Part shown: positions 4,208-49,949 of the stretch, one piece after another
Numbering within the stretch: the first letter of the stretch is position 1
Layout: the number at the start of each line of letters is the position of its first letter
Translations under genes and position numbers: made by a program
Notes under the pieces: generated by a model
The model's database searches: none
Told to the model about the DNA's origin: nothing
Seen by the model: only the letters and a program-made list of their open reading frames with translations
Sequence record: OZ470806.1
Reading direction: 5' to 3' (one strand)
Length of the DNA stretch: 49,949 nucleotides
DNA from: a phage

Positions 4208-5320
4208 ATGAAGGCAAAACAAAGATTTGATAGCGTCCAGGTTAAGGCGCATTTTGATGATAATGGCTTTTTAGTGGATCGCCCAATTGTGGCGCGAATT
4301 GGTTTGCAGGAGTACCGCACACCGTATGGAATCAGACGAGAGTTCCGACCAGCGTCAGAGGTGTTTAAGGCTGATTCGCTTGCTACGTTCGCAGGCAAGC
4401 CGATCACTATCGGTCACGTCACGGTAACGCCAGACAATGCGGATCAGGTTGTTGTTGGTTCATGCGCTGGCGCTGGTGTTCCAAATGGGATTGGCGTTGA
4501 AGTTCCGTTAAGCATTTACTCAAAGCGAGCAATTGAGAGCGCAAAAAAGAAAGACACGGCGGAAATTTCAGTTGGTTACACATCGGTTGATATTGACAAG
4601 CCAGGCTGGGGTAATAATAAAACTGGTGATTACTTGTTTGAGGAAGACCTCAAGGAAGACTGGAGGCCTGATTCTTCTGATTGGGTTAAATTTGACGCCA
4701 TTCAGACGAATATCCGTGTTAATCACATTGCACTTGTCTTTCGTGGTCGTGCTGGTATTGCCAAATTAAATCTTGATAGTGAACAGGATTTTCCGTATAG
4801 TGACGAGGTTCTAAATGACAAAGGAGATGAGGAAATGACAGTAAAAATTAAACTTGATGGCGCGGTAGAATTTGATGTTCCAAAGGCCGTTGCTGATCAT
4901 ATTGAGGCGTTAAAGGCAGATGCAAAAGCTGCAACCGAAAAAGCTGATGGCCTTGAGGCAGAGCGCGACGCCCTGAAAACTAAAGTCGATGGCATTCCGG
5001 CGCAGATTGCAGAAGCTGTTAAGAAGGCAAAGACTGACGCAGAAGAACACGCCAAGCTGGTTGCAGATGCAACTGAAATTGGCATCAAGTGTGACGGATT
5101 GGACGCTAAAGCGATCAAGGTTGCTTACGTCAAAGAAGTCACTGGCGCTGATATTTCAGAAAAAGCCGATGCATATATTGAAACAGCTTTTGACCTTGCG
5201 AAGCAGTCTGATAAAATGGCGGCGCAGCGTAAATCTGTTAAGGGCGATTCTTTCGAATCTGGCAAGAGTGAAAAAACCGACTCCCTTGATCCGACTGCGC
5301 GTTTGAAAAAACTTAAATAA
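4208..5320 (+). CDS. scaffolding / prohead maturation protein (putative)
   Basis: 370 aa; C-terminal Ala/Lys/Glu/Asp-rich predicted coiled coil; position before capsid genes. Confidence 0.5.
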   Translation: MKAKQRFDSVQVKAHFDDNGFLVDRPIVARIGLQEYRTPYGIRREFRPASEVFKADSLATFAGKPITIGHVTVTPDNADQVVVGSCAGAGVPNGIGVEVPLSIYSKRAIESAKKKDTAEISVGYTSVDIDKPGWGNNKTGDYLFEEDLKEDWRPDSSDWVKFDAIQTNIRVNHIALVFRGRAGIAKLNLDSEQDFPYSDEVLNDKGDEEMTVKIKLDGAVEFDVPKAVADHIEALKADAKAATEKADGLEAERDALKTKVDGIPAQIAEAVKKAKTDAEEHAKLVADATEIGIKCDGLDAKAIKVAYVKEVTGADISEKADAYIETAFDLAKQSDKMAAQRKSVKGDSFESGKSEKTDSLDPTARLKKLK

Positions 5321-8544: not shown

Positions 8545-8980
8545 AAACTACACGATAAGGGAATTTCACGGCAACATTGATGCGTGGATAAACGCCGTTG
8601 ATAGTGGACTAAAAGATTGCGTGGAGTTGTTCGCCGAAAAAGTACACACAGATTTGGTTAAGCGTTCTCCGGTAGATACTGGTCGTTACCGTGGAAACTG
8701 GCAGGTGACAGCAAATAAGCCGCCATTGTATGCGCTTAATCAGTACGATAAGCACGGAGACAAAACGATCGCGGAAGGAAAACGTGCCATATACGCAATA
8801 TTACGAGGTGGCGGCGCAGTAAGAGCTATTTATTTTTCTAACATGCTTATTTATGCTAACGCGCTTGAGTACGGTCATTCAAAACAAGCGCCAGCGGGTG
8901 TGCTTGGTATTGTTGCCGTGAAATTGCGTTCATATATAGCTGAGGCAATAAAAGAGTCGAGGGCAAAAAATGCACTATGA
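8537..8980 (+). CDS. tail completion / neck protein (putative)
   Basis: 147 aa, coupled to neighbours; position. Confidence 0.4.
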   Translation: MAKNYTIREFHGNIDAWINAVDSGLKDCVELFAEKVHTDLVKRSPVDTGRYRGNWQVTANKPPLYALNQYDKHGDKTIAEGKRAIYAILRGGGAVRAIYFSNMLIYANALEYGHSKQAPAGVLGIVAVKLRSYIAEAIKESRAKNAL

Positions 8981-10135: not shown

Positions 10136-10453
10136 ATGTCAAAAATGAAATTGACGATTGGGCCGCTTCCTGACTTTAAATTACCAGTGAAATTTGCAAT
10201 GCCTAACGGAGAAGATCAAACAATTATCTTCACAGTTCGCCACCGCAAAACAAGTGAGATTCACGATCGCTACACGTCAGATACTCCAATGAGCGATGTT
10301 GAAATGATCACCTTCCTTGCTTCCGGTTGGAATCTTGATGATGAATTTAACGAAGAAAATATTAAACAGCTTCTTGATTACTACCCAGCAACAGCAATCG
10401 GATTAACTAGCGCATACATGAAAGCGCTTGCGGGGCAGCGAGTAAAAAACTAA
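10136..10453 (+). CDS. tail assembly chaperone (G-like, zero-frame product)
   Basis: 105 aa, immediately upstream of tape measure; ends at slippery site. Confidence 0.7.
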   Translation: MSKMKLTIGPLPDFKLPVKFAMPNGEDQTIIFTVRHRKTSEIHDRYTSDTPMSDVEMITFLASGWNLDDEFNEENIKQLLDYYPATAIGLTSAYMKALAGQRVKN

Positions 10454-10764
10454 AAAGGGCGGTTTACCTGTTTTATCAGAAACCGCCGACAGATGCAGAG
10501 CTTGAGGCTGTTGGCCTTACAAGGGCAGACTATGAAGGAGAAGATCCGCCAGAGGTTATATTTGATGAAAGCATGATGCAATCATGGGATATATTTTGCG
10601 CAATGCAAACGCAATGGAGATGTTCTGGCGGTGGCGCTTACGGATTTGATTATAATGTCTTGCCTATGCTTTTTGAGATTTACAAGGTTGAGGATCGCGA
10701 GATGGCGCTAAACGACTTGCGAATCATGGAGCAAAAAGCACTTGAAATGATGCATTCAAAATAA
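10136..10764 (+). CDS. tail assembly chaperone, -1 frameshift fusion product (GT-like)
   Basis: A_AAA_AAC heptamer 10444-10450 in zero frame; -1 frame open from there to 10764; 8-bp hairpin GGGCGGTTT/AAACCGCC 10457-10487 starts 6 nt downstream. Confidence 0.6.
10444..10450 (+). other. programmed -1 ribosomal frameshift slippery heptamer A_AAA_AAC
   Basis: X_XXY_YYZ pattern in frame of 10136 ORF, 2 codons before its stop. Confidence 0.6.
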
Positions 10765-10803: not shown

Positions 10804-13476
10804 ATGTCAGAACAATACGCAGGCTTGACGCTTGGGGTTGACGTTTCTCAACTCAACAATGCTGTAAAGTCTTTGCAGCAATTCAAGAAGGCAAACGACG
10901 ACGCAAAGGGAAGCATTGAGAGTTTTGTTGATTCAGAGGTTGTTGCAAGACAAAGAGCCAAACAACTGGCTGAGGAATTGGCAAAGCAGAAGCAAGAATT
11001 TAAAGCAATTCAGTCGGCAATAGATCCGACAGCAAGCAAAATGGATAAGTTGCGCCAGGCTGCGACACAGCTTGATGCGCTTTGGAAAAAAGGAATTGTG
11101 CCGGATGATACATTCTTTGAGTTAGGATCAATTCTTGAGACGCAGCAAAATAAACTGATCGCAACTAAGAAGGCGCTAACTGAAGAAGGCCGCGCGGCGC
11201 TTGAGGAAGCAAAAAATAAGGCAAGGGCAGAGGCTGAGGCAAGAAAGTTCATTGCGGCATTGCAGGCGCAAGCTGACGCAGCGGAAAAAACAAAATCAGA
11301 GCTTGTCGAAATGAGAGCCGCACAACTTGGAGTTAGTGCAGAGGCAGCGCCATTTATTGCAAAAATGAAGGAGCAGGAAAAACAAGCCTCAAAACTTGGC
11401 GTTTCTATGGGGCAGTACAAGCAAGCAATGGCGCAATTGCCAATGCAGATCACTGACGTTGTTACTTCTCTTGCTTCAGGTATGCCAGTATGGATGATCG
11501 CAATCCAGCAGGGGGGGCAAATCAAGGACTCATTCGGCGGTGTTGCTAATACGTTTAAAGCGCTAATGACATTTGTCACGCCGCTAAGTGTTGGCATGAC
11601 GGCGCTGACTGGTGCGCTTGGTTATGCTGCATATAATGCATACAAAGCAAATGCGCAACTAAAGGAGATCACAAAAACCGTTCAGGAGGCAACTGGTCTT
11701 TCTGGTGATTTTGCGGAGCGTATTGCAACTGGAATCCAGGCGCTATCTGACAAGACAGGAGAGAGCGCAGACAATATCTCAAAGGCTTACATAAGCACGA
11801 AGGATGGAGCAAGCGAGGCTATACAAAAACTCGTCGATGTTGGTTTTACCTATGATGAAGCAAAGGCTAAGGTAAACGAATACAAAAACGCATCAAGTTT
11901 TGTAAGTCTTAACAATGAAATTGCTGATCACAAAAACAAAGTTCTTGAGCTTGGTGATTCATGGTATGCGGTCTTAAAAGCAAAACGTGATTATGCTTCA
12001 CCGTCCGGCGGGCTGTTGGGGAAAGAGCTTGGTTATGTGAATCCAATGCTGCAATTTGCGAAGAACACCTATGAGGATATAGGAAAGATCGTAAAAGATG
12101 CGAATAAGGATATGGCGGAACGAGCAGCACGCATCGACAGAGAAAACCTTTCATTAAACAGAGTTCGAGCGGCGCAAGAGGCTTTAAACAAAGCCATAGA
12201 GGATCAGAAGAACGTAGCAAGGACAGCAGACGAAGAGTTGAAAAAGCGCGCGGCTGAGAACGTGGAGTTCAGGCGAAAAGAGCTTGAAGAGGCGAAGAAG
12301 GCGCAGCAGCAAAAGGAGAAAGTTGGTGGAGTTGTAAAAGCACCAACAGAGCAGCTTGATAAGGAGCTATATGTTCTCAAGGCGCAACTTGAAACGCTGA
12401 AAGAGCACCGAACTGTAAATGATGTTATTTCACGCCAGAGGCAATCTTTGTGGAGCATTGAAAAGCAGATCCAGATCCTTGAGGAAGCGCAAAGTAAACG
12501 CAAGCTGACAAAAGCGGAACAGGCATTATTAAACGAGCAAAAAGCAGTTATTGCTATGGCAAAAGAAAAGGCAGAGATAGGCAATCAGATTGTTTTGCAA
12601 CAGAGAAAGAACAAGCAATACCAGGAAGGGCTTAAATTCATTCAGCAAACATCAGATGCTATTGACGCTATGAACTTGCGACAGTCTGGAGCTACAGATC
12701 TGCAAATCCAGCGAGAGCTTGAGTTGAAGAAGTTGCGAACTGATTATGTTGCTGGCGGCGGTAGTATCGACGATGAAATTTATCAGCAGATGGAAGCAAA
12801 GCTGAAGGAGTATTACGCCACTGAGGATCAGCTTAGAAATAACTGGATTGCAGGAGCAAAAAACGCATGGGAGGTTTACGGACAAGATGCAATGGATATG
12901 TACGGCAACGTGCAAGATATTGCAAGCGAGGCGCTCAACGGTCTAACCAACCAAATGGCTACATTCCTTGCAACAGGAAAGGCAAACTTTAAGAGCTTCG
13001 CAACGTCAATCATCCAAATGATTATCCAGATGATCACAAAGATGGTTATCTTTAATGCCATATCCGGTGCGATTGGCGGTGACACTTGGACGATTGGAAG
13101 CCTTCTTAAAAATGTTGGATTTGCAACTGGTGGATACACTGGCGACGGCGGGAAGTATGAGCCAGCAGGTGTTGTTCATAAAGGCGAGTTTGTCATGACG
13201 AAGGAGGCCACGAAGCGGATCGGAGTTGGAAATCTTTACAAAATGATGCGCGGTTATGCAAATGGCGGCGTTGTTGGCGGCACTTCATACACTGGCGGAG
13301 GAGTTTCATCTGGAGCAACAAATCTTAATATTGGCGGGATCAGCGTTGATATTAACAACGGAAGCGATCCGAAAGGGTTGGAGACTGGCGTAAAAATGAT
13401 TTTCACTGATATGATTAAGCGTTCCTGTACGCAGGGTGGGGAAGTTTACGAATTTGTTATGTCTAAGCGGGGGTGA
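10804..13476 (+). CDS. tail tape measure protein
   Basis: 890 aa; long Ala/Glu/Lys/Gln-rich coiled-coil region; Gly-rich C-terminus; follows G/GT pair. Confidence 0.9.
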
Positions 13477-13532
13477 TAGTGAAACTTGAGCAATTCAAAT
13501 GGTGCACGCAAACGCAAGGAGGCGGCGGCACT

Positions 13533-13829
13533 ATGACCACATCAAATAACGACAGGGAAATCTCATTTGGTAATGGTTACACGCAGGTTGCGTCAGGAGG
13601 GTTTAACACGGTACGCAGGGAGTTTTCCATTGTCTATGTTGGCAAGGATTACAGAGACGTTGTTGACTTCCTGAATGGACACAGGCTGAAGCCGTTTTTA
13701 TGGTTTATGCCTGACGGTCAACCTGGTCTATTCAGGGTAAAATCTGGTAGCGTTGGATTAACTCCAATATCAGCAACCGTTCAGGAAGTGAAAGCAACAT
13801 TTACTGAGCAATTTACATCAATGCAATAA
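13533..13829 (+). CDS. minor tail protein (lambda gpM-like position)
   Basis: ATG 13533 preceded by AAGGAGG (ORF track extends to GTG 13473 overlapping tape-measure stop); first gene of M-L-K-I-J-like order. Confidence 0.55.
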   Translation: MTTSNNDREISFGNGYTQVASGGFNTVRREFSIVYVGKDYRDVVDFLNGHRLKPFLWFMPDGQPGLFRVKSGSVGLTPISATVQEVKATFTEQFTSMQ

Positions 13830-13857: not shown

Positions 13858-13890
13858 TTGATGATACAATGCACGAAAGGAGGTGCAATC

Positions 13891-14652
13891 ATGGCTAATG
13901 AAACAACAGGTCGCGCGGATCTTGAAAATTGTCTGCAAAGCCTTTACCCTGGCGAGATTATCACGCTAATTGAGATTGACGGCACAAAGTTTGGCGCAAA
14001 CATTTACCGCATACACAATGAGAACATCTCATACACTGCGGAAGAATTATTGCAGGCGCGAGAAACTGGAGTTCTTCCGCCGAAAGAGATTACATTCCGT
14101 GGCGAGGTTTACGGCGCGCGACCGTTTGGAATATCTGGAATCAACTTCACAAGCAACGGAAAGGCTGATAAGCCACAATTGATACTATCAAACCTTGATA
14201 GCCAGGTGAGCGCGATGATTCGCAACTTTAACGGCATGATGCAAGCTAAGGTTACAATCTGGATCACGCCAGCGGAATTAATGGGGAAAGATGGCAGCAT
14301 TAAAGATGGAGCCTCAAGAAAGCTGGTTTACTACATTGAGCGCCCAAGCCATTACAATAGAATGATGGCGAAATTTGACCTGACATCGCCTTATGATATG
14401 GATGGAATAATGATTCCTCCGCGAATAACTCAAAGCGTTTGTTATTGGGCGCAGCGTGGATGGTATAGAAGCGGAAAAGGTTGCGGATACAATGGATCGC
14501 GAATGTTTGACAAAGACAACAATCCTATAACCGATCCATCTCAAGACTTTTGCGCCGGAACTGTAACAGCGTGCAAACTTCGTTTTGGTGCAGATAAGCA
14601 GCTTGATTTTGGCGGCGCACCAGTAGCAAGCCTGTTAAGGAGAAATCAGTGA
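13891..14652 (+). CDS. minor tail protein L-like
   Basis: ATG 13891 after RBS GAAAGGAGG; C-terminal Cys cluster (CYW...C..C...C) like the Fe-S site of lambda gpL. Confidence 0.7.
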   Translation: MANETTGRADLENCLQSLYPGEIITLIEIDGTKFGANIYRIHNENISYTAEELLQARETGVLPPKEITFRGEVYGARPFGISGINFTSNGKADKPQLILSNLDSQVSAMIRNFNGMMQAKVTIWITPAELMGKDGSIKDGASRKLVYYIERPSHYNRMMAKFDLTSPYDMDGIMIPPRITQSVCYWAQRGWYRSGKGCGYNGSRMFDKDNNPITDPSQDFCAGTVTACKLRFGADKQLDFGGAPVASLLRRNQ

Positions 14653-14969
14653 TGATTAGTGCAAAAATAAAACTTGAAATAATGCAGCACGTAAAAGATG
14701 AATACCCGCGCGAGGCGTGCGGGGTTATCACTCAAAAATCACGCGTGCAAAAATACCACCGCGTAACCAACGTGCATGATGATCCTGAAAATCATTTTGA
14801 GATGAACGCAATTGAATACGTTGAGGCGTGTGAAAGTGGCGAGCTTATTGCTGTTGTGCATAGCCACACTGGAGACGGGGCAAGTACAATTCCAGCGCCC
14901 ATGATACATGCATGTGTGATGAGATGGGTGTTTCATGGGTTATTGTGTCATGGCCAGAAGGTGATATGA
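14649..14969 (+). CDS. tail tip assembly protein K-like, N-terminal MPN/JAMM-like part
   Basis: REACG ... VVHSH motif; frame ends at 14969 while the NlpC/P60-like part continues in another frame. Confidence 0.6.
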   Translation: MMISAKIKLEIMQHVKDEYPREACGVITQKSRVQKYHRVTNVHDDPENHFEMNAIEYVEACESGELIAVVHSHTGDGASTIPAPMIHACVMRWVFHGLLCHGQKVI

Positions 14970-15382
14970 GAATAATTGAGCCTGAATCTCGTCCTCTGAT
15001 TGGTCGCCCGTGGTCGCTTGGGGCGTATGATTGCTGGGGGCTTATTATGGCATGGCACAAGCAACATGGCGTTATCCTGAATGATTTCAGGAAACCATAT
15101 GAATGGTGGAAGCCTGAGCACGGCGAAAATCTTTACCAGGAAAATTATCTGAAAGAGGGTTTTGTTGAAACAGGAGAGCCGCCAAAACCTGGTGATATGG
15201 TTATCTTTCAGCTTTCCGCGCCAGTGTGGAATCATGCAGGCATTTATCTTGGCAACAATCAATTGCTTCATCATGCCTTTGGCAAGTTGTCAAGGGTTGA
15301 TTTGTATTCTGGATGGTATCAGGAACATGCAAAAATGGTTTGTAGACATAAGGATCTGAAATATGACTTTGAAGGTAATTAA
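14912..15382 (+). CDS. tail tip assembly protein K-like, C-terminal NlpC/P60-like part
   Basis: DCWGL (Cys) and NHAGIY (His) motifs; frame open from 14864, overlapping previous ORF. Confidence 0.6.
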   Translation: MCDEMGVSWVIVSWPEGDMRIIEPESRPLIGRPWSLGAYDCWGLIMAWHKQHGVILNDFRKPYEWWKPEHGENLYQENYLKEGFVETGEPPKPGDMVIFQLSAPVWNHAGIYLGNNQLLHHAFGKLSRVDLYSGWYQEHAKMVCRHKDLKYDFEGN

Positions 15383-15959
15383 ATTATCTGGATCTTTAGG
15401 CCGAAGATTTGGAGTATTTCATAAGCTGGCTGTTGATTCATACCCCGAAGCAATACGCGCACTATCTTCGCAGGTGGAAGGATTCAAGGACTACATGCAA
15501 AGCGAAGTAGGATCGCGAATGCGTTACGCTGTATTTGTTGACGGTAAGAATGTAGGACAGCACGATGAAAAAGCGTGGCAATGCGCAAAGGAAGTGAGGA
15601 TTATTCCAATCCCAACAGGTTCAAAGTCTGGCGGGTTGTTTCAGGTTGTTCTTGGCGCGGTTATTATGGCGACTGCATTTTTCACTGGCGGCGCTTCACT
15701 TGCGTTAATGGGTGCTTTTGCATCGTCTGCCTTTATGATGGGTGGAGCAATGGTACTTGGCGGAGTAATGCAAATGATCTCACCGCAGCAAGGAGGATCA
15801 AGATTGTCATCCCAATCAGCAGAAAACAAGCCGTCTTATGCTTTCGGTGGCGCTGTTAACACAACGGCAGCAGGATACCCAATACCATTGCCATATGGTC
15901 AAAGGACCGTCGGCGGAGCTATCTGGTCGGCTGGCAGCTATGCAGAGGACAAGGCTTAA
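15363..15959 (+). CDS. tail assembly protein I-like
   Basis: 198 aa; Gly/Ala-rich hydrophobic C-terminal half; between K-like and J-like genes. Confidence 0.6.
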   Translation: MTLKVIKLSGSLGRRFGVFHKLAVDSYPEAIRALSSQVEGFKDYMQSEVGSRMRYAVFVDGKNVGQHDEKAWQCAKEVRIIPIPTGSKSGGLFQVVLGAVIMATAFFTGGASLALMGAFASSAFMMGGAMVLGGVMQMISPQQGGSRLSSQSAENKPSYAFGGAVNTTAAGYPIPLPYGQRTVGGAIWSAGSYAEDKA

Positions 15960-16039: not shown

Positions 16040-19000
16040 ATGGCTGAAAATATGATAACGGGAAGTAAGGGTGGATCATCAAAACCTTATGTTCCGAAAG
16101 AGATGGAAGATAACCTGATCTCAATCAACAAAATCAAAATCCTTCTTGCCGTTTCCGATGGCGAGTGCGATCCAGATTTTACACTTCGCGATCTGTATCT
16201 TGATGATGTTCCGGTAATTGCAGACGACGGAACTGTTAACTACCAGGGTGTGAAAGCTGAATTTCGACCTGGAACGCAGACGCAAGATTACATCCAGGGG
16301 TTTACTGATACATCAAGCGAAGTGACGCTGGCGCGTGACATTACGACGACAAATCCTTATGTAATTTCTGTAACCAACAAAACATTATCGGCTATCAGAA
16401 TAAAAATGCTAATGCCAACAGGCATTAAGCAAGAGGATAACGGCGATCTTGTCGGCGTTAAGGTTACTTATGCTGTTGATATGGCTGTTGACGGAGACTC
16501 TTACAAAGAAGTATTGCGAGACACTATCGAAGGTAAAACACGTTCAGGTTACGACAGAAGCCGAAGGATTGACCTTCCGGCATTTAATGATCGCGTATTA
16601 CTTAGGGTTAGAAGGGTTACGGCAGACAGCGCATCTTCTCGTGTTACTGATTTGATTAAGCTACAAAGTTACGCTGAGGTTATTGATGCAAAATTCCGTT
16701 ATCCTATGACTGGTCTTGTTTACGTTGAATTTGACAGCGAATTGTTCCCAAACCAGATCCCTAACATTTCAATCAAGAAGAAATGGAAGCTGATTAATGT
16801 ACCAAGCAACTATGACCCTGTATCTAGAGAGTATAGAGGTTCATGGGATGGAACGTTCAAGAAAGCGTGGTCGAATAATCCGGCGTGGGTGCTTTATGAC
16901 ATTATCACAAACCAGCGATATGGATTAGATCAGCGAGAACTTGGTGTACAGGTTGATAAATGGAGTCTTTACGAGGCGGCGCAATACTGCGATCAGAAAG
17001 TTCCTGACGGGAAAGGCGGTACAGAGCCGCGTTATCTATGCGACGTTGTGATTCAAAGCCAGATTGAGGCTTATCAGCTTATTCGTGATATTTGCTCAAT
17101 CTTCAGAGGCATGAGCTTTTGGAATGGCGAGAGCTTGTCAATCGTCATTGATAAGCCGCGCGATCCGTCGTACATCTTCACCAATGACAACGTTGTTGAT
17201 GGTGATTTTCAGTACACAACAGCAAGCGAAAAGAGCATGTACACGCAGTGCAACGTGACGTTTGACGACGAACAAAACATGTATCAACAGGACGTAGAGG
17301 GCGTATTCGACACAGAGGCCGCATTGCGCTTTGGGTACAATCCGACAAGCATAACAGCGATCGGATGTACACGCAGGAGTGAGGCTAATCGGCGCGGTCG
17401 ATGGATACTAAAAACCAACTTGCGCAGCACTACGGTAAACTTTGCTACTGGACTGGAAGGCATGATCCCATCAATAGGTGATGTGATTGCTATTGCTGAC
17501 AACTTTCACAGCAGCAACCTGAAGTTAAACCTATCAGGGCGCGTGATGGAAGTTTCCGGCTTGCAGGTATTCGTTCCGTTTAAGATTGATGCTAGACCAG
17601 GTGATTTCATTATCATCAACAAGCCGGACGGTAAGCCAGTTAAGCGCACAATCTCAAAGGTAAGCGGTGACGGAAAAACCATTGAACTAAACATTGGGTT
17701 TGGGTTTGAAGTTAAACCGGATACAGTTTTTGCAATCGACCGCACTGATGTTGCATTGCAGCAATACGTTGTAACGAGTATCGGCAAAGGTGATGATGAT
17801 GATGAATTTACATACTCCATCACGGCTGTTGAATATGACCCGAACAAATACGACGAGATTGATTATGGAGTAAATATTGACGACAGGCCAACTTCAATTG
17901 TCCAGCCTGACACAATGGCAGCGCCTGAAAATGTGCAAATATCCTCATACTCGCGAATTGTCCAGGGTGCAAGCGTTGAAACAATGGTTGTGTCGTGGGA
18001 TAAAGTACCTTACGCATCGCTGTATGAAATGCAATGGCGAAAAGGTGATGGCAACTGGCTGAATACACCACAGACCGCAAACAAAGAAATTGAGGTTGAA
18101 GGTATTTATTCAGGAAACTACCAGGTAAGGGTTAGATCTGTTTCTGCTTCAGGTTCGACTTCTCCGTGGTCCAGAATTGTAACAGCCTCACTGACAGGTA
18201 AGGTAGGAGAGCCAGGCGCTCCAGTTAACTTAACCGCATCCGACAATGAGGTGTTTGGCATTCGTGTTAAGTGGGGGATGCCAGAAGGGAGCGGAGACAC
18301 GGCATACATTGAACTTCATCAGTCGCCAGATGGAACAGCGGAAAACTCAAGCCTGTTAACGCTGATCCCATATCCACAATATGAATACTGGCACGGTACG
18401 CTTCCGGCTGGTCATGTTGTCTGGTATAGAATCCGCAGCGTTGACAGAATCGGCAACGTTTCCGGATGGACTGATTTTGTTAGAGGCATGGCTTCAGATG
18501 ATGTGGAGGCTGTTTTAGGTGATATTCTTGATAAGATTTTTGATACAGAAGCAGGCAAGGATCTGAAAGAGAACGCCATTGACAGTGCAAACAAGATAAA
18601 GGACCAGGCGCAAGCAATCATCCAGAATGCTCTTGCTAATGATGCTGATATTAAGTGGACGCGAGTACAAAACGGAAAGAGAAAGGCTGAATATGGTCAC
18701 GCTCTTGAGCTTATCGCCACAGAGACTGAGGCGCGAGTTACGCAGATTGAAGAATTGAGGGCATCAATCGACGAGGATATTGTTTCAAGCATAAAGACAG
18801 TGCAGGAGGCTATCGCCACAGAATCTGAAACGCGAGCAACTCAAATAAATGCTTTGGATTCAAAATTCACAACTGAAATTGACGGTGTAAAACGCGATAC
18901 AGCCGCAAGCATTAATCAGGTGAATCAAACCATTGCCAATGAGTCAGAAGCGCGCGCGCAGGCCGTTAACGCGCTTGATGCGAAGTTCACAAAGGAGATC

Positions 19001-19618
19001 GAAGATTTAAACGGAGTCATTAAGACTGAGGTTGAGGCTAACATCTCTGAAGTGAAACAGGCTATCGCTAACGAGACAGAAGCAAGGGTACAGGCTGACA
19101 AGGCGTTAACAGCTAAATTTGGAGACGTTGAATCTGCATTGTCGCAAAAACTTGATTCATGGGCTGGCGTGTCGTCTGTTGGTGCTAAATACTCAATGAA
19201 ATTGGGGTTAACATACAACGGTCAACAGTACAGCGCGGGGATGGTGATGCAGCTTTCGCAGAGTTCATCCGGCCTTATTTCGCAAATTTTGTTTGATGCG
19301 AACAGGTTCGCCATCATGACAAGTTCGACTGGCGGGGTGTATACGCTGCCTTTCGTGGTGGAAAATAACCAGGTATTCATTAACAGCCTGTTAGTTAAAA
19401 ACGGTTCAATTACAAATGCTATGATCGGTAATTATATTCAGTCGAATAACTTTGTTGCCAATCAGCAGGGTTGGAGGCTGGATAAAAACGGCAGATTTGA
19501 GAACTACGGTTCTACATCTGGAGAAGGGGCCATGAAGTTGACCAACGAAACGATAAGTGTACGTGACGCAAACGGGCGCTTGCGTGTTCAGATTGGTAGG
19601 CTTACTGGTACGTGGTAA
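16040..19618 (+). CDS. tail tip / host specificity protein J-like (central fibre)
   Basis: 1192 aa; follows I-like gene; C-terminal tandem coiled-coil repeats. Confidence 0.85.
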   Translation: MAENMITGSKGGSSKPYVPKEMEDNLISINKIKILLAVSDGECDPDFTLRDLYLDDVPVIADDGTVNYQGVKAEFRPGTQTQDYIQGFTDTSSEVTLARDITTTNPYVISVTNKTLSAIRIKMLMPTGIKQEDNGDLVGVKVTYAVDMAVDGDSYKEVLRDTIEGKTRSGYDRSRRIDLPAFNDRVLLRVRRVTADSASSRVTDLIKLQSYAEVIDAKFRYPMTGLVYVEFDSELFPNQIPNISIKKKWKLINVPSNYDPVSREYRGSWDGTFKKAWSNNPAWVLYDIITNQRYGLDQRELGVQVDKWSLYEAAQYCDQKVPDGKGGTEPRYLCDVVIQSQIEAYQLIRDICSIFRGMSFWNGESLSIVIDKPRDPSYIFTNDNVVDGDFQYTTASEKSMYTQCNVTFDDEQNMYQQDVEGVFDTEAALRFGYNPTSITAIGCTRRSEANRRGRWILKTNLRSTTVNFATGLEGMIPSIGDVIAIADNFHSSNLKLNLSGRVMEVSGLQVFVPFKIDARPGDFIIINKPDGKPVKRTISKVSGDGKTIELNIGFGFEVKPDTVFAIDRTDVALQQYVVTSIGKGDDDDEFTYSITAVEYDPNKYDEIDYGVNIDDRPTSIVQPDTMAAPENVQISSYSRIVQGASVETMVVSWDKVPYASLYEMQWRKGDGNWLNTPQTANKEIEVEGIYSGNYQVRVRSVSASGSTSPWSRIVTASLTGKVGEPGAPVNLTASDNEVFGIRVKWGMPEGSGDTAYIELHQSPDGTAENSSLLTLIPYPQYEYWHGTLPAGHVVWYRIRSVDRIGNVSGWTDFVRGMASDDVEAVLGDILDKIFDTEAGKDLKENAIDSANKIKDQAQAIIQNALANDADIKWTRVQNGKRKAEYGHALELIATETEARVTQIEELRASIDEDIVSSIKTVQEAIATESETRATQINALDSKFTTEIDGVKRDTAASINQVNQTIANESEARAQAVNALDAKFTKEIEDLNGVIKTEVEANISEVKQAIANETEARVQADKALTAKFGDVESALSQKLDSWAGVSSVGAKYSMKLGLTYNGQQYSAGMVMQLSQSSSGLISQILFDANRFAIMTSSTGGVYTLPFVVENNQVFINSLLVKNGSITNAMIGNYIQSNNFVANQQGWRLDKNGRFENYGSTSGEGAMKLTNETISVRDANGRLRVQIGRLTGTW
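18700..19150 (+). repeat. four tandem ~100-130 bp repeats inside J-like gene
   Basis: protein repeats IA(T/N)E(S/T)E(A/T)R...(L/N)A(L)D(S/A)KFT beginning near 18712, 18812, 18932, 19063. Confidence 0.55.
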
Positions 19619-34777: not shown

Positions 34778-34993
34778 ATGAAAGATTTTTTAAACGCTGC
34801 AACTTCCGGCACTGGCGGCGCGTCAATCACTGGCGCGGTAACTGGTCAAACAACTATTGCAATGGCCAGCTTCGTTTTGATGGCTGCATTTGGTATGTGG
34901 GGCGCTTATCTTCGCTGGCGTGATAGTAAGGCGCTACGTGACGCGCTTGAATGCGGTGATATTAAGAAAGCTATTGAGATCAGAGGTAAATAA
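34778..34993 (+). CDS. holin (putative)
   Basis: 71 aa; hydrophobic segments; charged C-terminus; immediately upstream of endolysin with ATGA coupling. Confidence 0.55.
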
Positions 34994-35565
34994 TGAGTAT
35001 AAAACAAAGAGTGACCGCTGCGGCTTTTGGCGTTGCTCTTGCCCTTACTTCTCCGCTACTGGAGGAAATAGAAGGAGTAAAACATAAGCCGTACAAAGAT
35101 ATTGCTGGGATATGGACGGTTTGCGCCGGAATAACTGGACCTGACGTAATACCAGGCAAAACGTACACACAGAGAGAGTGCGATGCGCTACTGGCAAAGC
35201 ATATCAAGATCGCAAAGGATGAAGTTGATAAACGTGTGAAGGTTGAGATTCCTGATACAATGCGCGCAGCGATGTATTCATTCACATACAATGCTGGCAC
35301 TGGTGCTTTTAGAAATTCAACCATGCTTAAGCTGATTAATAACGGTCGTTATATGGAAGCGTGCAATCAGTTATGGCGATGGACAAAATACACCAATCCA
35401 AAAACAGGAAAGAAAAAACGTCTAAAGGACTGCGCAACCGCCGCGCGGTGGAATTTAAATATTGCATTAAGGATCTGTAATCATGAGAAAGTTATCAGCA
35501 ATCGCGATCGCTGTTATTTTGTCTGGATGTTCAAGCGTTACGCCACTGACCGGATTAATCGGTAG
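34993..35565 (+). CDS. endolysin, T4-lysozyme family with SAR-like N-terminus
   Basis: E-x8-D-x5-T ([16 protein letters not shown]); N-terminal Gly/Ala-rich weakly hydrophobic segment [17 protein letters not shown]. Confidence 0.75.
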
Positions 35566-35881
35566 TAAGCCGGAAATCACAGCACAGGCAGGGGCGGAGA
35601 ACGTAAAGCAGACCGTTGGCGTTACCGCAAAGCAGGACACCAGCACGAAACAGGAAACTACAATAAAGGAATCTGCGGTTGATAAGGTGGACACTTCCAG
35701 CAAGAAGGATTTCACTACGTCAACCATTCAGGCAAACACCATCAAGGCTGATAAAATCCAGATTGTGCAGGGTGAGCAAAGGAAGTGGTACGATCCTATA
35801 ATCTATTGCGCTGCAATTTTCAGTGGTCTTTTGACTATGCTTTACTTTTCCTACCGCAAAGATAACAAAAAGGAGGCTTAA
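35483..35881 (+). CDS. unimolecular spanin (u-spanin) candidate
   Basis: 132 aa; lipobox LSGC at N-terminus and single C-terminal TM segment; overlaps endolysin 3' end. Confidence 0.6.
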
Positions 35882-39037: not shown

Positions 39038-39744
39038 TTTGCGTTAGCTTCAAAGACGGCGCGAGCAAAACCTCGCGGAGTGAGGGAGCGGATCATCTTT
39101 GTGCGAGATGATTTTCCGCCAGTTTTGGCCCAGCCTGGATTATCTTTGTCATTCTCTTTCGGCAGGATTAAAGCGCGCGGAGGAATAACAAATCCGTTTC
39201 CAGTCCAAAGGCATGTTTTCTTAAAGTACCGATCCCGCGCAGGAATAATATCAGGGAAGTCGGGATGCTTATCATCTTCCGGCAGATAGCCAGCATAATC
39301 GCACGGATGGAACGTATAATCAGGCTTACGCCATAACGTTGACAGCTTGCCTACAGGATTTTCGATCATGTAAGGAACGCCGAAATAATCAGCGATATGC
39401 GCCGCGATTCTGCAAGTGTCGGCGGCCTCATCCTGGAAAGAGGGATTCTCAAGGCGTTTTTTGGACCAATGGCGAGATCCGCTATTTGCAAGGTCAGTGC
39501 ACGGCGGAAATGCCATAATGAAATCAGGCTTACCCCAATTTTCAAGTTTTGCGGTATATTTGAATAGCTCATCAATCCACACATTAACGTAAAAAATATT
39601 ATCATGGATTATGCGCACTGATTGGTAATCTCCGTGATCGGCATCATCGTAATTAAAGCAAATGCATTTATATCCAGCATCAGCCCAATCTTTAACGGCT
39701 TTACCAGATCCATCAAACAAAGAGAATATTAAACCTTTATACAT
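39034..39744 (-). CDS. minimal DNA (cytosine-5)-methyltransferase-like protein
   Basis: 236 aa; FSLFDGSG (motif I-like), FPPCTDLANSG (PC motif with Thr in place of Gln), MIENPVG (ENV-like), GNGFVIPP (motif X-like); no large target-recognition domain. Confidence 0.5.
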   Translation of the reverse strand: MYKGLIFSLFDGSGKAVKDWADAGYKCICFNYDDADHGDYQSVRIIHDNIFYVNVWIDELFKYTAKLENWGKPDFIMAFPPCTDLANSGSRHWSKKRLENPSFQDEAADTCRIAAHIADYFGVPYMIENPVGKLSTLWRKPDYTFHPCDYAGYLPEDDKHPDFPDIIPARDRYFKKTCLWTGNGFVIPPRALILPKENDKDNPGWAKTGGKSSRTKMIRSLTPRGFARAVFEANAK

Positions 39745-49634: not shown

Positions 49635-49870
49635 GTTCTGTAATTATTGGTTTGGTTGCTTTAATCATTGGTGTTCTAATCGGCTTTGTTGCTGTATCTT
49701 TCGTGGTGGCTGTTGGTGTTCGCTATAAGTCAAAAAAAGGTGAATTTGCTTTAGCGTTTTGGGATGAAGATCAGAAAGTTTGGCAGGTTCGCGGTCACTA
49801 CTTATCAATCGGTGGCAGGATTCACAGCACTATGAAGACAAATCCAGAAAAAGTAAAATACAAGTATTGA
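49631..49870 (+). CDS. small membrane protein
   Basis: 79 aa; N-terminal TM segment; RBS AAGGAAA. Confidence 0.45.
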   Translation: MSSVIIGLVALIIGVLIGFVAVSFVVAVGVRYKSKKGEFALAFWDEDQKVWQVRGHYLSIGGRIHSTMKTNPEKVKYKY

Positions 49871-49877
49871 ACAACTA

Positions 49878-49899
49878 CCCGCCAAATGGCGGGTTTTTT
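49878..49899 (+). terminator. rho-independent terminator
   Basis: hairpin CCCGCC-aaat-GGCGGG followed by T6. Confidence 0.65.
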
Positions 49900-49916
49900 A
49901 TTGCCTGCAATTTGTC

Positions 49917-49944
49917 TATAATGATGCTTTGTTATAAAGGAGGG
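49917..49944 (+). promoter_or_regulatory. TATAAT -10 and RBS for terS across window junction
   Basis: TATAAT 49917-49922; AAGGAGG 49938-49944; ATG at window position 2. Confidence 0.35.
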
Positions 49945-49949
49945 CGCAT

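Follow-up and report, generated by a model that had tools for sequence, protein, structure and literature searches.

A single missing A divides the gpK-like tail gene of a Hanrivervirus genome record, most likely through a sequence error

Introduction

In the phage genome record OZ470806.1, of which the whole stretch of 49,949 nucleotides was analysed (the window), a tail gene resembling lambda K is distributed over two reading frames. An initial annotation of the sequence had pointed to a sequencing error in a homopolymer, a genuine frameshift mutation or translational recoding as possible causes. The locus raises the question which of these applies, and whether the phage itself would make one protein or two fragments of it.

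The gpK protein is required for lambda tail assembly (PMC12617516), and it has not been detected in lambda virions by mass spectrometry or cryo-EM (PMC10721106, PMC12617516). Iyer, Burroughs and Aravind predicted in 2006 that gpK/TAPK processes the ubiquitin-like N-terminal domain of gpI (PMC1779556). Judged by this literature and by inference, the K protein of the window would be a member of the gpK/TAPK family, in which a JAB/MPN metallopeptidase is fused to an NlpC/P60 cysteine peptidase.

The genome and its tail module

The window is the genome of a Hanrivervirus (Drexlerviridae, Tempevirinae), i.e. of a T1-like phage. An ORF at 49768-49949 crosses the window end when it is joined to positions 1-520, and it matches the small terminase and the region upstream of it in relatives. 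Since this ORF spans end to start, the window is a whole, circularly permuted genome. In the K region, Escherichia phage Henu8 is 99.7% identical to the window and some 60 other Hanrivervirus records reach 94-99%; when 24 kb are compared, JLBYU09 and JLBYU41 (98.0%) and Henu8 (97.2%) come closest. As the nearest records are only 98.0% identical over this length, the window represents an isolate distinct from them; no record identical to its J-like protein was found. About 20 unannotated MG0656xx "Campylobacter phage" records (MG065643.1 and MG065669.1 among them), with Campylobacter jejuni as stated host, share 90-98% identity with this E. coli/Shigella group of Hanrivervirus phages in the regions of K and the endolysin gene, which suggests a mis-assigned host or contaminating coliphages.

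The tail genes follow the lambda order TMP-M-L-K-I-J (Table 1). As in Henu8 and other Hanrivervirus genomes, K is located between an L-like and an I-like gene, and its ATG overlaps the TGA of the former by 1 nt. The last 20 nt of K (15363-15382) are shared, in another frame, with the beginning of the gpI-like gene. This overlap is also annotated in JLBYU09, JakobBernoulli, grams and haarsle; a later I start is annotated in pSf-1 and EC147 (15883 in EC147).

Table 1. Features of the tail module, the divided K gene and the second deletion, in positions of the window
Feature	Position	Strand	Remark
Tape measure	10804-13476		Lambda-like gene order
M-like gene	13473-13829		Lambda-like gene order
gpL-like tail tip gene	13858..14652	+	Identical protein carries PF05100 Phage_tail_L
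K	14652-15382		Flanked by gpL-like and gpI-like genes; gpJ-like gene farther downstream
gpK-like codons 1-81, native frame	14652..14894	+	N-terminal two thirds of JAB/MPN with E21, H70, H72
G4 run, candidate of the initial annotation	14877..14880	+	Unchanged versus intact relatives; not the lesion
Site of the missing base	14894..14895	+	Window CCA/GCG, relatives CCA AGC G (Pro81-Ser82)
Out-of-frame tail of ORF1, 24 residues APMIHACVMRWVFHGLLCHGQKVI, then TGA	14895..14969	+	Without counterpart in relatives
gpK-like codons 82-243 and stop, now in -1 frame	14895..15382	+	S82-x-x-D85, rest of JAB, whole NlpC/P60
gpI-like gene	15363..15959	+	Identical protein carries PF06805 Lambda_tail_I
J-like gene	16040-19618		Homologues in relatives carry GpJ domains
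Second window-private 1-nt deletion, G of GAAAGAAAGAAACG lost	35415..35416	+	Inside endolysin ORF 34993-35565

Two frames and one protein family

The layout described in the initial annotation, a gpK-like tail gene split over two frames, holds in every coordinate. ORF1 begins with the GTG at 14649, or with the ATG at 14652 according to the annotation in relatives, and ends with the TGA at 14967-14969; its product contains REACG...VVHSHTGDGASTIPAPMIH (REACG...VVHSH). In the -1 frame, a TAG at 14861-14863 is followed by an open stretch that begins at 14864, terminates with the stop codon at 15380-15382 and encodes DCWG...NHAG. The two ORFs correspond to 105 and 156 aa, and the frames overlap by 106 nt, with the GGGG run of Table 1 in the overlap.

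A JAMM/MPN-like N-terminal and an NlpC/P60-like C-terminal part had been recognized from the sequence, and Pfam agrees with both assignments. Prok-JAB (PF14464) matches ORF1 with an E value of 9e-12, the match ending at residue 77, and reaches 9e-17 on an intact homologue that is identical to the repaired window protein. NLPC_P60 (PF00877) matches ORF2 with 2e-15 and the intact form with 6e-15; its complete domain is contained in ORF2 when this is read from the ATG at 14912, and weak PDB sequence matches of this part are to Spr/MepS and Tn916-like hydrolases. The PHROG 30 family "minor tail protein", which matches the gpK-like protein with 1e-113, is hit by the two halves at adjoining model positions (288-364 and 373-523), and both the Pfam and the PHROG matches to ORF1 end at residues 77-79. 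Together, the two halves correspond to a single 243-aa protein of relatives over its full length, so that the split is not a chance arrangement. The JAB/MPN plus NlpC/P60 architecture, the gene order and PHROG 30 are shared with lambda gpK/TAPK, which is only a distant sequence relative.

Motif spacing predicts E21, H70, H72, S82 and D85 as catalytic residues of the JAB domain, and C128, H195 and H207 as the triad of the NlpC/P60 domain. In the window as written, ORF1 retains E21, H70 and H72, and S82 and D85 are lost. A single polypeptide with both domains is encoded in every relative and in the window after restoration of an A, but not in the window as written.

The missing base

In every relative, K is one CDS of 732 nt that encodes 243 aa, as exemplified by the equivalent proteins Henu8 gp41 (product "tail assembly protein"), pSf-1 gp80, JLBYU09_51 and JakobBernoulli bas07_0020. 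The window differs from these in that its K lacks one A and reads as two ORFs. None of the gpK homologues of related phages consists of two separate proteins; all are encoded by a single contiguous ORF. The proposal of a single gpK-like protein of about 250 aa was correct as regards one gene with both domains, with the actual length being 243 aa.

Aligned at the DNA level with Henu8, JLBYU09, pSf-1 and JakobBernoulli, the window shows a single gap, with ATTCCAGCGCC in place of the ATTCCAAGCGCC of these relatives. What it lacks is one A of an AA pair (CCAAGC to CCAGC) at the boundary of the codons for Pro81 (CCA) and Ser82 (AGC), and this loss throws codons 82-243 into the -1 frame. The additional A (CCAAGC) is present in 21 of the 21 related loci aligned, which included ten contigs that had been assembled independently from metagenomes and SRA data. 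Likewise, all GenBank phage matches listed that span the site are 1 nt longer than the query (e.g. 1102 versus 1101, or 312 versus 311), and this excess holds down to 77% identity, once a single whole-codon indel is allowed for in each of the two groups that are most distant. Relatives that are about 99% identical across K (98% over 24 kb) differ at the split by the indel alone.

Insertion of the A yields a protein of 243 aa that is identical to Henu8 gp41 (QEA10090.1 / YP_009904945.1) at 243 of 243 positions, and because of this identity the 162 codons downstream of the break are free of decay. The repaired protein falls into a 90%-identity cluster of 846 members, with lengths of 237-243 aa in all 15 members listed. 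Its JAMM motif reads HSH...IPSAHD, and the restored HSHTGDGASTIPSAHD aligns with HSHPDHPARPSATD (HSHPDHPA--RPSATD) of the solved MPN-family protein 2kcq.

The expectation that the break is a 1-nt frameshift within 14864-14969, and that its repair restores an S-x-x-D after the HSH, is borne out by the missing A at 14894/14895 and by S82-A-H-D85, which results from the A insertion. The lesion had been sought in the G4 run, however, and this run reads GGGG in the intact Henu8, pSf-1 and JakobBernoulli genes as well, and GGTG in that of JLBYU09. What is missing is not a G but an A, located 14 nt downstream of the run. An added G arithmetically gives the HSHTGDGGKYNSSAHD that had been proposed, but this is not what the relatives have; with an extra G in the run, GKYNS replaces ASTIP, producing five mismatches at residues 77-81, and this repair was rejected.

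A second private deletion in the endolysin gene

The window contains another 1-nt deletion at 35416, where GAAAGAAAGAAACG has become GAAAGAAAAAACG. It replaces the last 21 residues of the endolysin and extends the protein from 162 to 190 aa, so that the ORF reaches into the spanin gene (35483-35881). With the G restored, the endolysin is one residue different from Henu8 gp60, and all 60 phage records listed for this region are 1 nt longer than the window. In a comparison with six complete relatives (Henu8, JLBYU09, grams, haarsle, EC147 and PGN590), in which an indel was regarded as private when it showed against all relatives aligned, exactly two private indels emerged for the window, i.e. 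the 1-nt deletions at 14894 in K and at 35416 in the endolysin gene. The private 1-2-nt indels of the six relatives, with their positions read against annotation tables, are mostly intergenic or near gene ends. A stop-to-stop ORF comparison with six genomes, which is noisy as non-coding frames are split by substitutions, gave K as the only real gene that is split in two against all six.

Small indel noise is common in the records of the Hanrivervirus group. Private 1-nt indels or N bases are located at 5158, 38836 and 8718-8745 in JLBYU09, which carries a run of N-containing bases, and at 39743 in grams. Through one of the private JLBYU09 indels, two small ORFs become one, which grams and the window keep apart; other indels are near the primase start.

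No record of ORF1, ORF2 or the 190-aa endolysin was found in a collection of 15 billion proteins. In the search for other carriers of the K deletion, a 20-mer across it matched only one 312-kb IMG/VR contig without flanking similarity, which we regard as a chance match given its dissimilar flanks, and a 28-mer across it matched no metagenome contig; the power of these searches is low, as the intact versions matched only 4 contigs (20-mer) and 2 contigs (28-mer). With ORF1 as protein query, only two fragments, both cut off by contig ends, were obtained. One of these ends with LSLIHI, which we take to be a translated Nextera adapter, yet it reads TLPSAHD and is hence in the intact frame.

Recoding, mutation or error

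Programmed -1 frameshifting or transcriptional slippage could in principle join the two frames during expression and give a full-length K. The 106-nt overlap is compatible with this, as a -1 shift anywhere within 14864-14966 would join the frames, and the arrangement recalls the lambda G/GT-type chaperones, which also have two overlapping frames in -1 relation within a siphovirus tail module. Indeed, the same tail module of the window holds a real -1 site at its tape-measure chaperone pair, where the Phage_TAC_4 ORF 10136-10453 carries an in-phase A AAA AAC (10444-10450) at its end, and the DUF1799 ORF 10573-10764 is reached by continuing in the -1 frame. Such chaperone frameshift sites are known from the tail modules of lambda-like and T1-like phages. 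The chaperone pair, however, has a canonical in-phase slippery heptamer and a two-ORF layout that is annotated in Henu8, JLBYU09 and EC147, and both are lacking in the K split. When 14850-14975 was scanned, X XXY YYZ heptamers proved to be absent from all phases. Within the overlap, GGGG is the only homopolymer of at least four bases, its phase (GAC GGG GCA) would disallow tRNA re-pairing after a -1 shift, and a long A or T run of about seven or more, as needed for transcriptional slippage, is absent. As no relative has the two-frame arrangement, all possessing a contiguous ORF with the extra A, there is no evolutionary conservation of a recoding signal. Having neither a slippery site nor a conserved layout, recoding, which had been among the explanations considered at the outset, is extremely improbable, and programmed recoding can be regarded as effectively excluded.

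A genuine and very recent frameshift mutation in the phage DNA is a more serious possibility, although we consider it unlikely. It would leave a catalytically dead JAB fragment of 81 native and 24 junk residues and, at best, an NlpC/P60-only product made by inefficient internal initiation at ATG 14912, so that the genome would be defective or belong to a variant that can do without the JAB domain. The deletion is indeed present in the given sequence without ambiguity codes, a complete NlpC/P60 domain is encoded from ATG 14912, JAB-only and NlpC/P60-only proteins exist as separate families (phrog_2635 with 135 and phrog_2552 with 142 positions), and phages with an NlpC/P60-only TAPK were described by Iyer et al. 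2006 (PMC1779556). The resemblance of the window to such a JAB-only ORF followed by an NlpC/P60-only ORF is superficial, however. In the natural families the division falls on the domain boundary, around residues 116-139, with phrog_2635 corresponding to residues 3-139 and phrog_2552 to residues 116-237 of the intact protein, whereas the break of the window comes at residue 81, within the JAB domain and ahead of its S-x-x-D. In addition, ATG 14912 is not preceded by a purine-rich, Shine-Dalgarno-like ribosome-binding sequence (CCCATGATACATGC-ATG), and naturally separate JAB-only and NlpC/P60-only genes were rejected on these two grounds. A genuine mutation is also disfavored in that the deletion is unique among the relatives examined and was not found in viral or metagenome contigs, in that no decay has followed the break, the repaired protein being 100% identical to Henu8 gp41, and in that a second private frameshift, that of the endolysin gene, would have to be tolerated as well. 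As gpK is required in lambda and as the deletion removes the S-x-x-D of the JAMM motif, a real lesion in K would probably be harmful.

We think that the split most likely reflects a base-calling or consensus error, with the phage itself making the normal single protein. In this explanation, a consensus or assembly error would have entered the genome record, and the actual phage would possess an intact K of 243 aa. An artefact is favored because the window combines two unique frame-breaking deletions in important genes with no further decay, and because errors land randomly in a mostly coding genome, whereas real indels that survive avoid such sites. Against an error, the sequence of the window is free of ambiguous bases and shows no other blemish. 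The homopolymer error that had been proposed does not apply to K, where the deletion only changes AA to A. In the endolysin gene a G is lost between A runs, and as neither deletion is located in a long homopolymer, the signature of a homopolymer undercall is weak. From the sequence comparisons, the absence of the base would nevertheless be an error of the record rather than a property of the phage DNA.

Implications

The K locus is a known gene with one missing A, most likely due to an error or a very recent mutation and not to a new mechanism. For the quality of the annotation, it follows that one K gene of 243 aa, or a frameshift flag, is due at this locus instead of two hypothetical ORFs, and that the endolysin annotation needs the same correction. 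The split of K adds nothing to the biology of recoding.

The biology of the gpK family would be affected if a viable phage really carried the deletion. Such a phage would assemble its tails with a K whose JAB domain is destroyed, and it would depend either on internal initiation, yielding a product with NlpC/P60 alone, or on rare, spontaneous frameshifts. In gpK-type proteins, the JAB domain would then be dispensable, and the finding would bear on the need for this domain in gpK. We consider this very improbable, as the evidence points away from it and towards an intact K with both domains.
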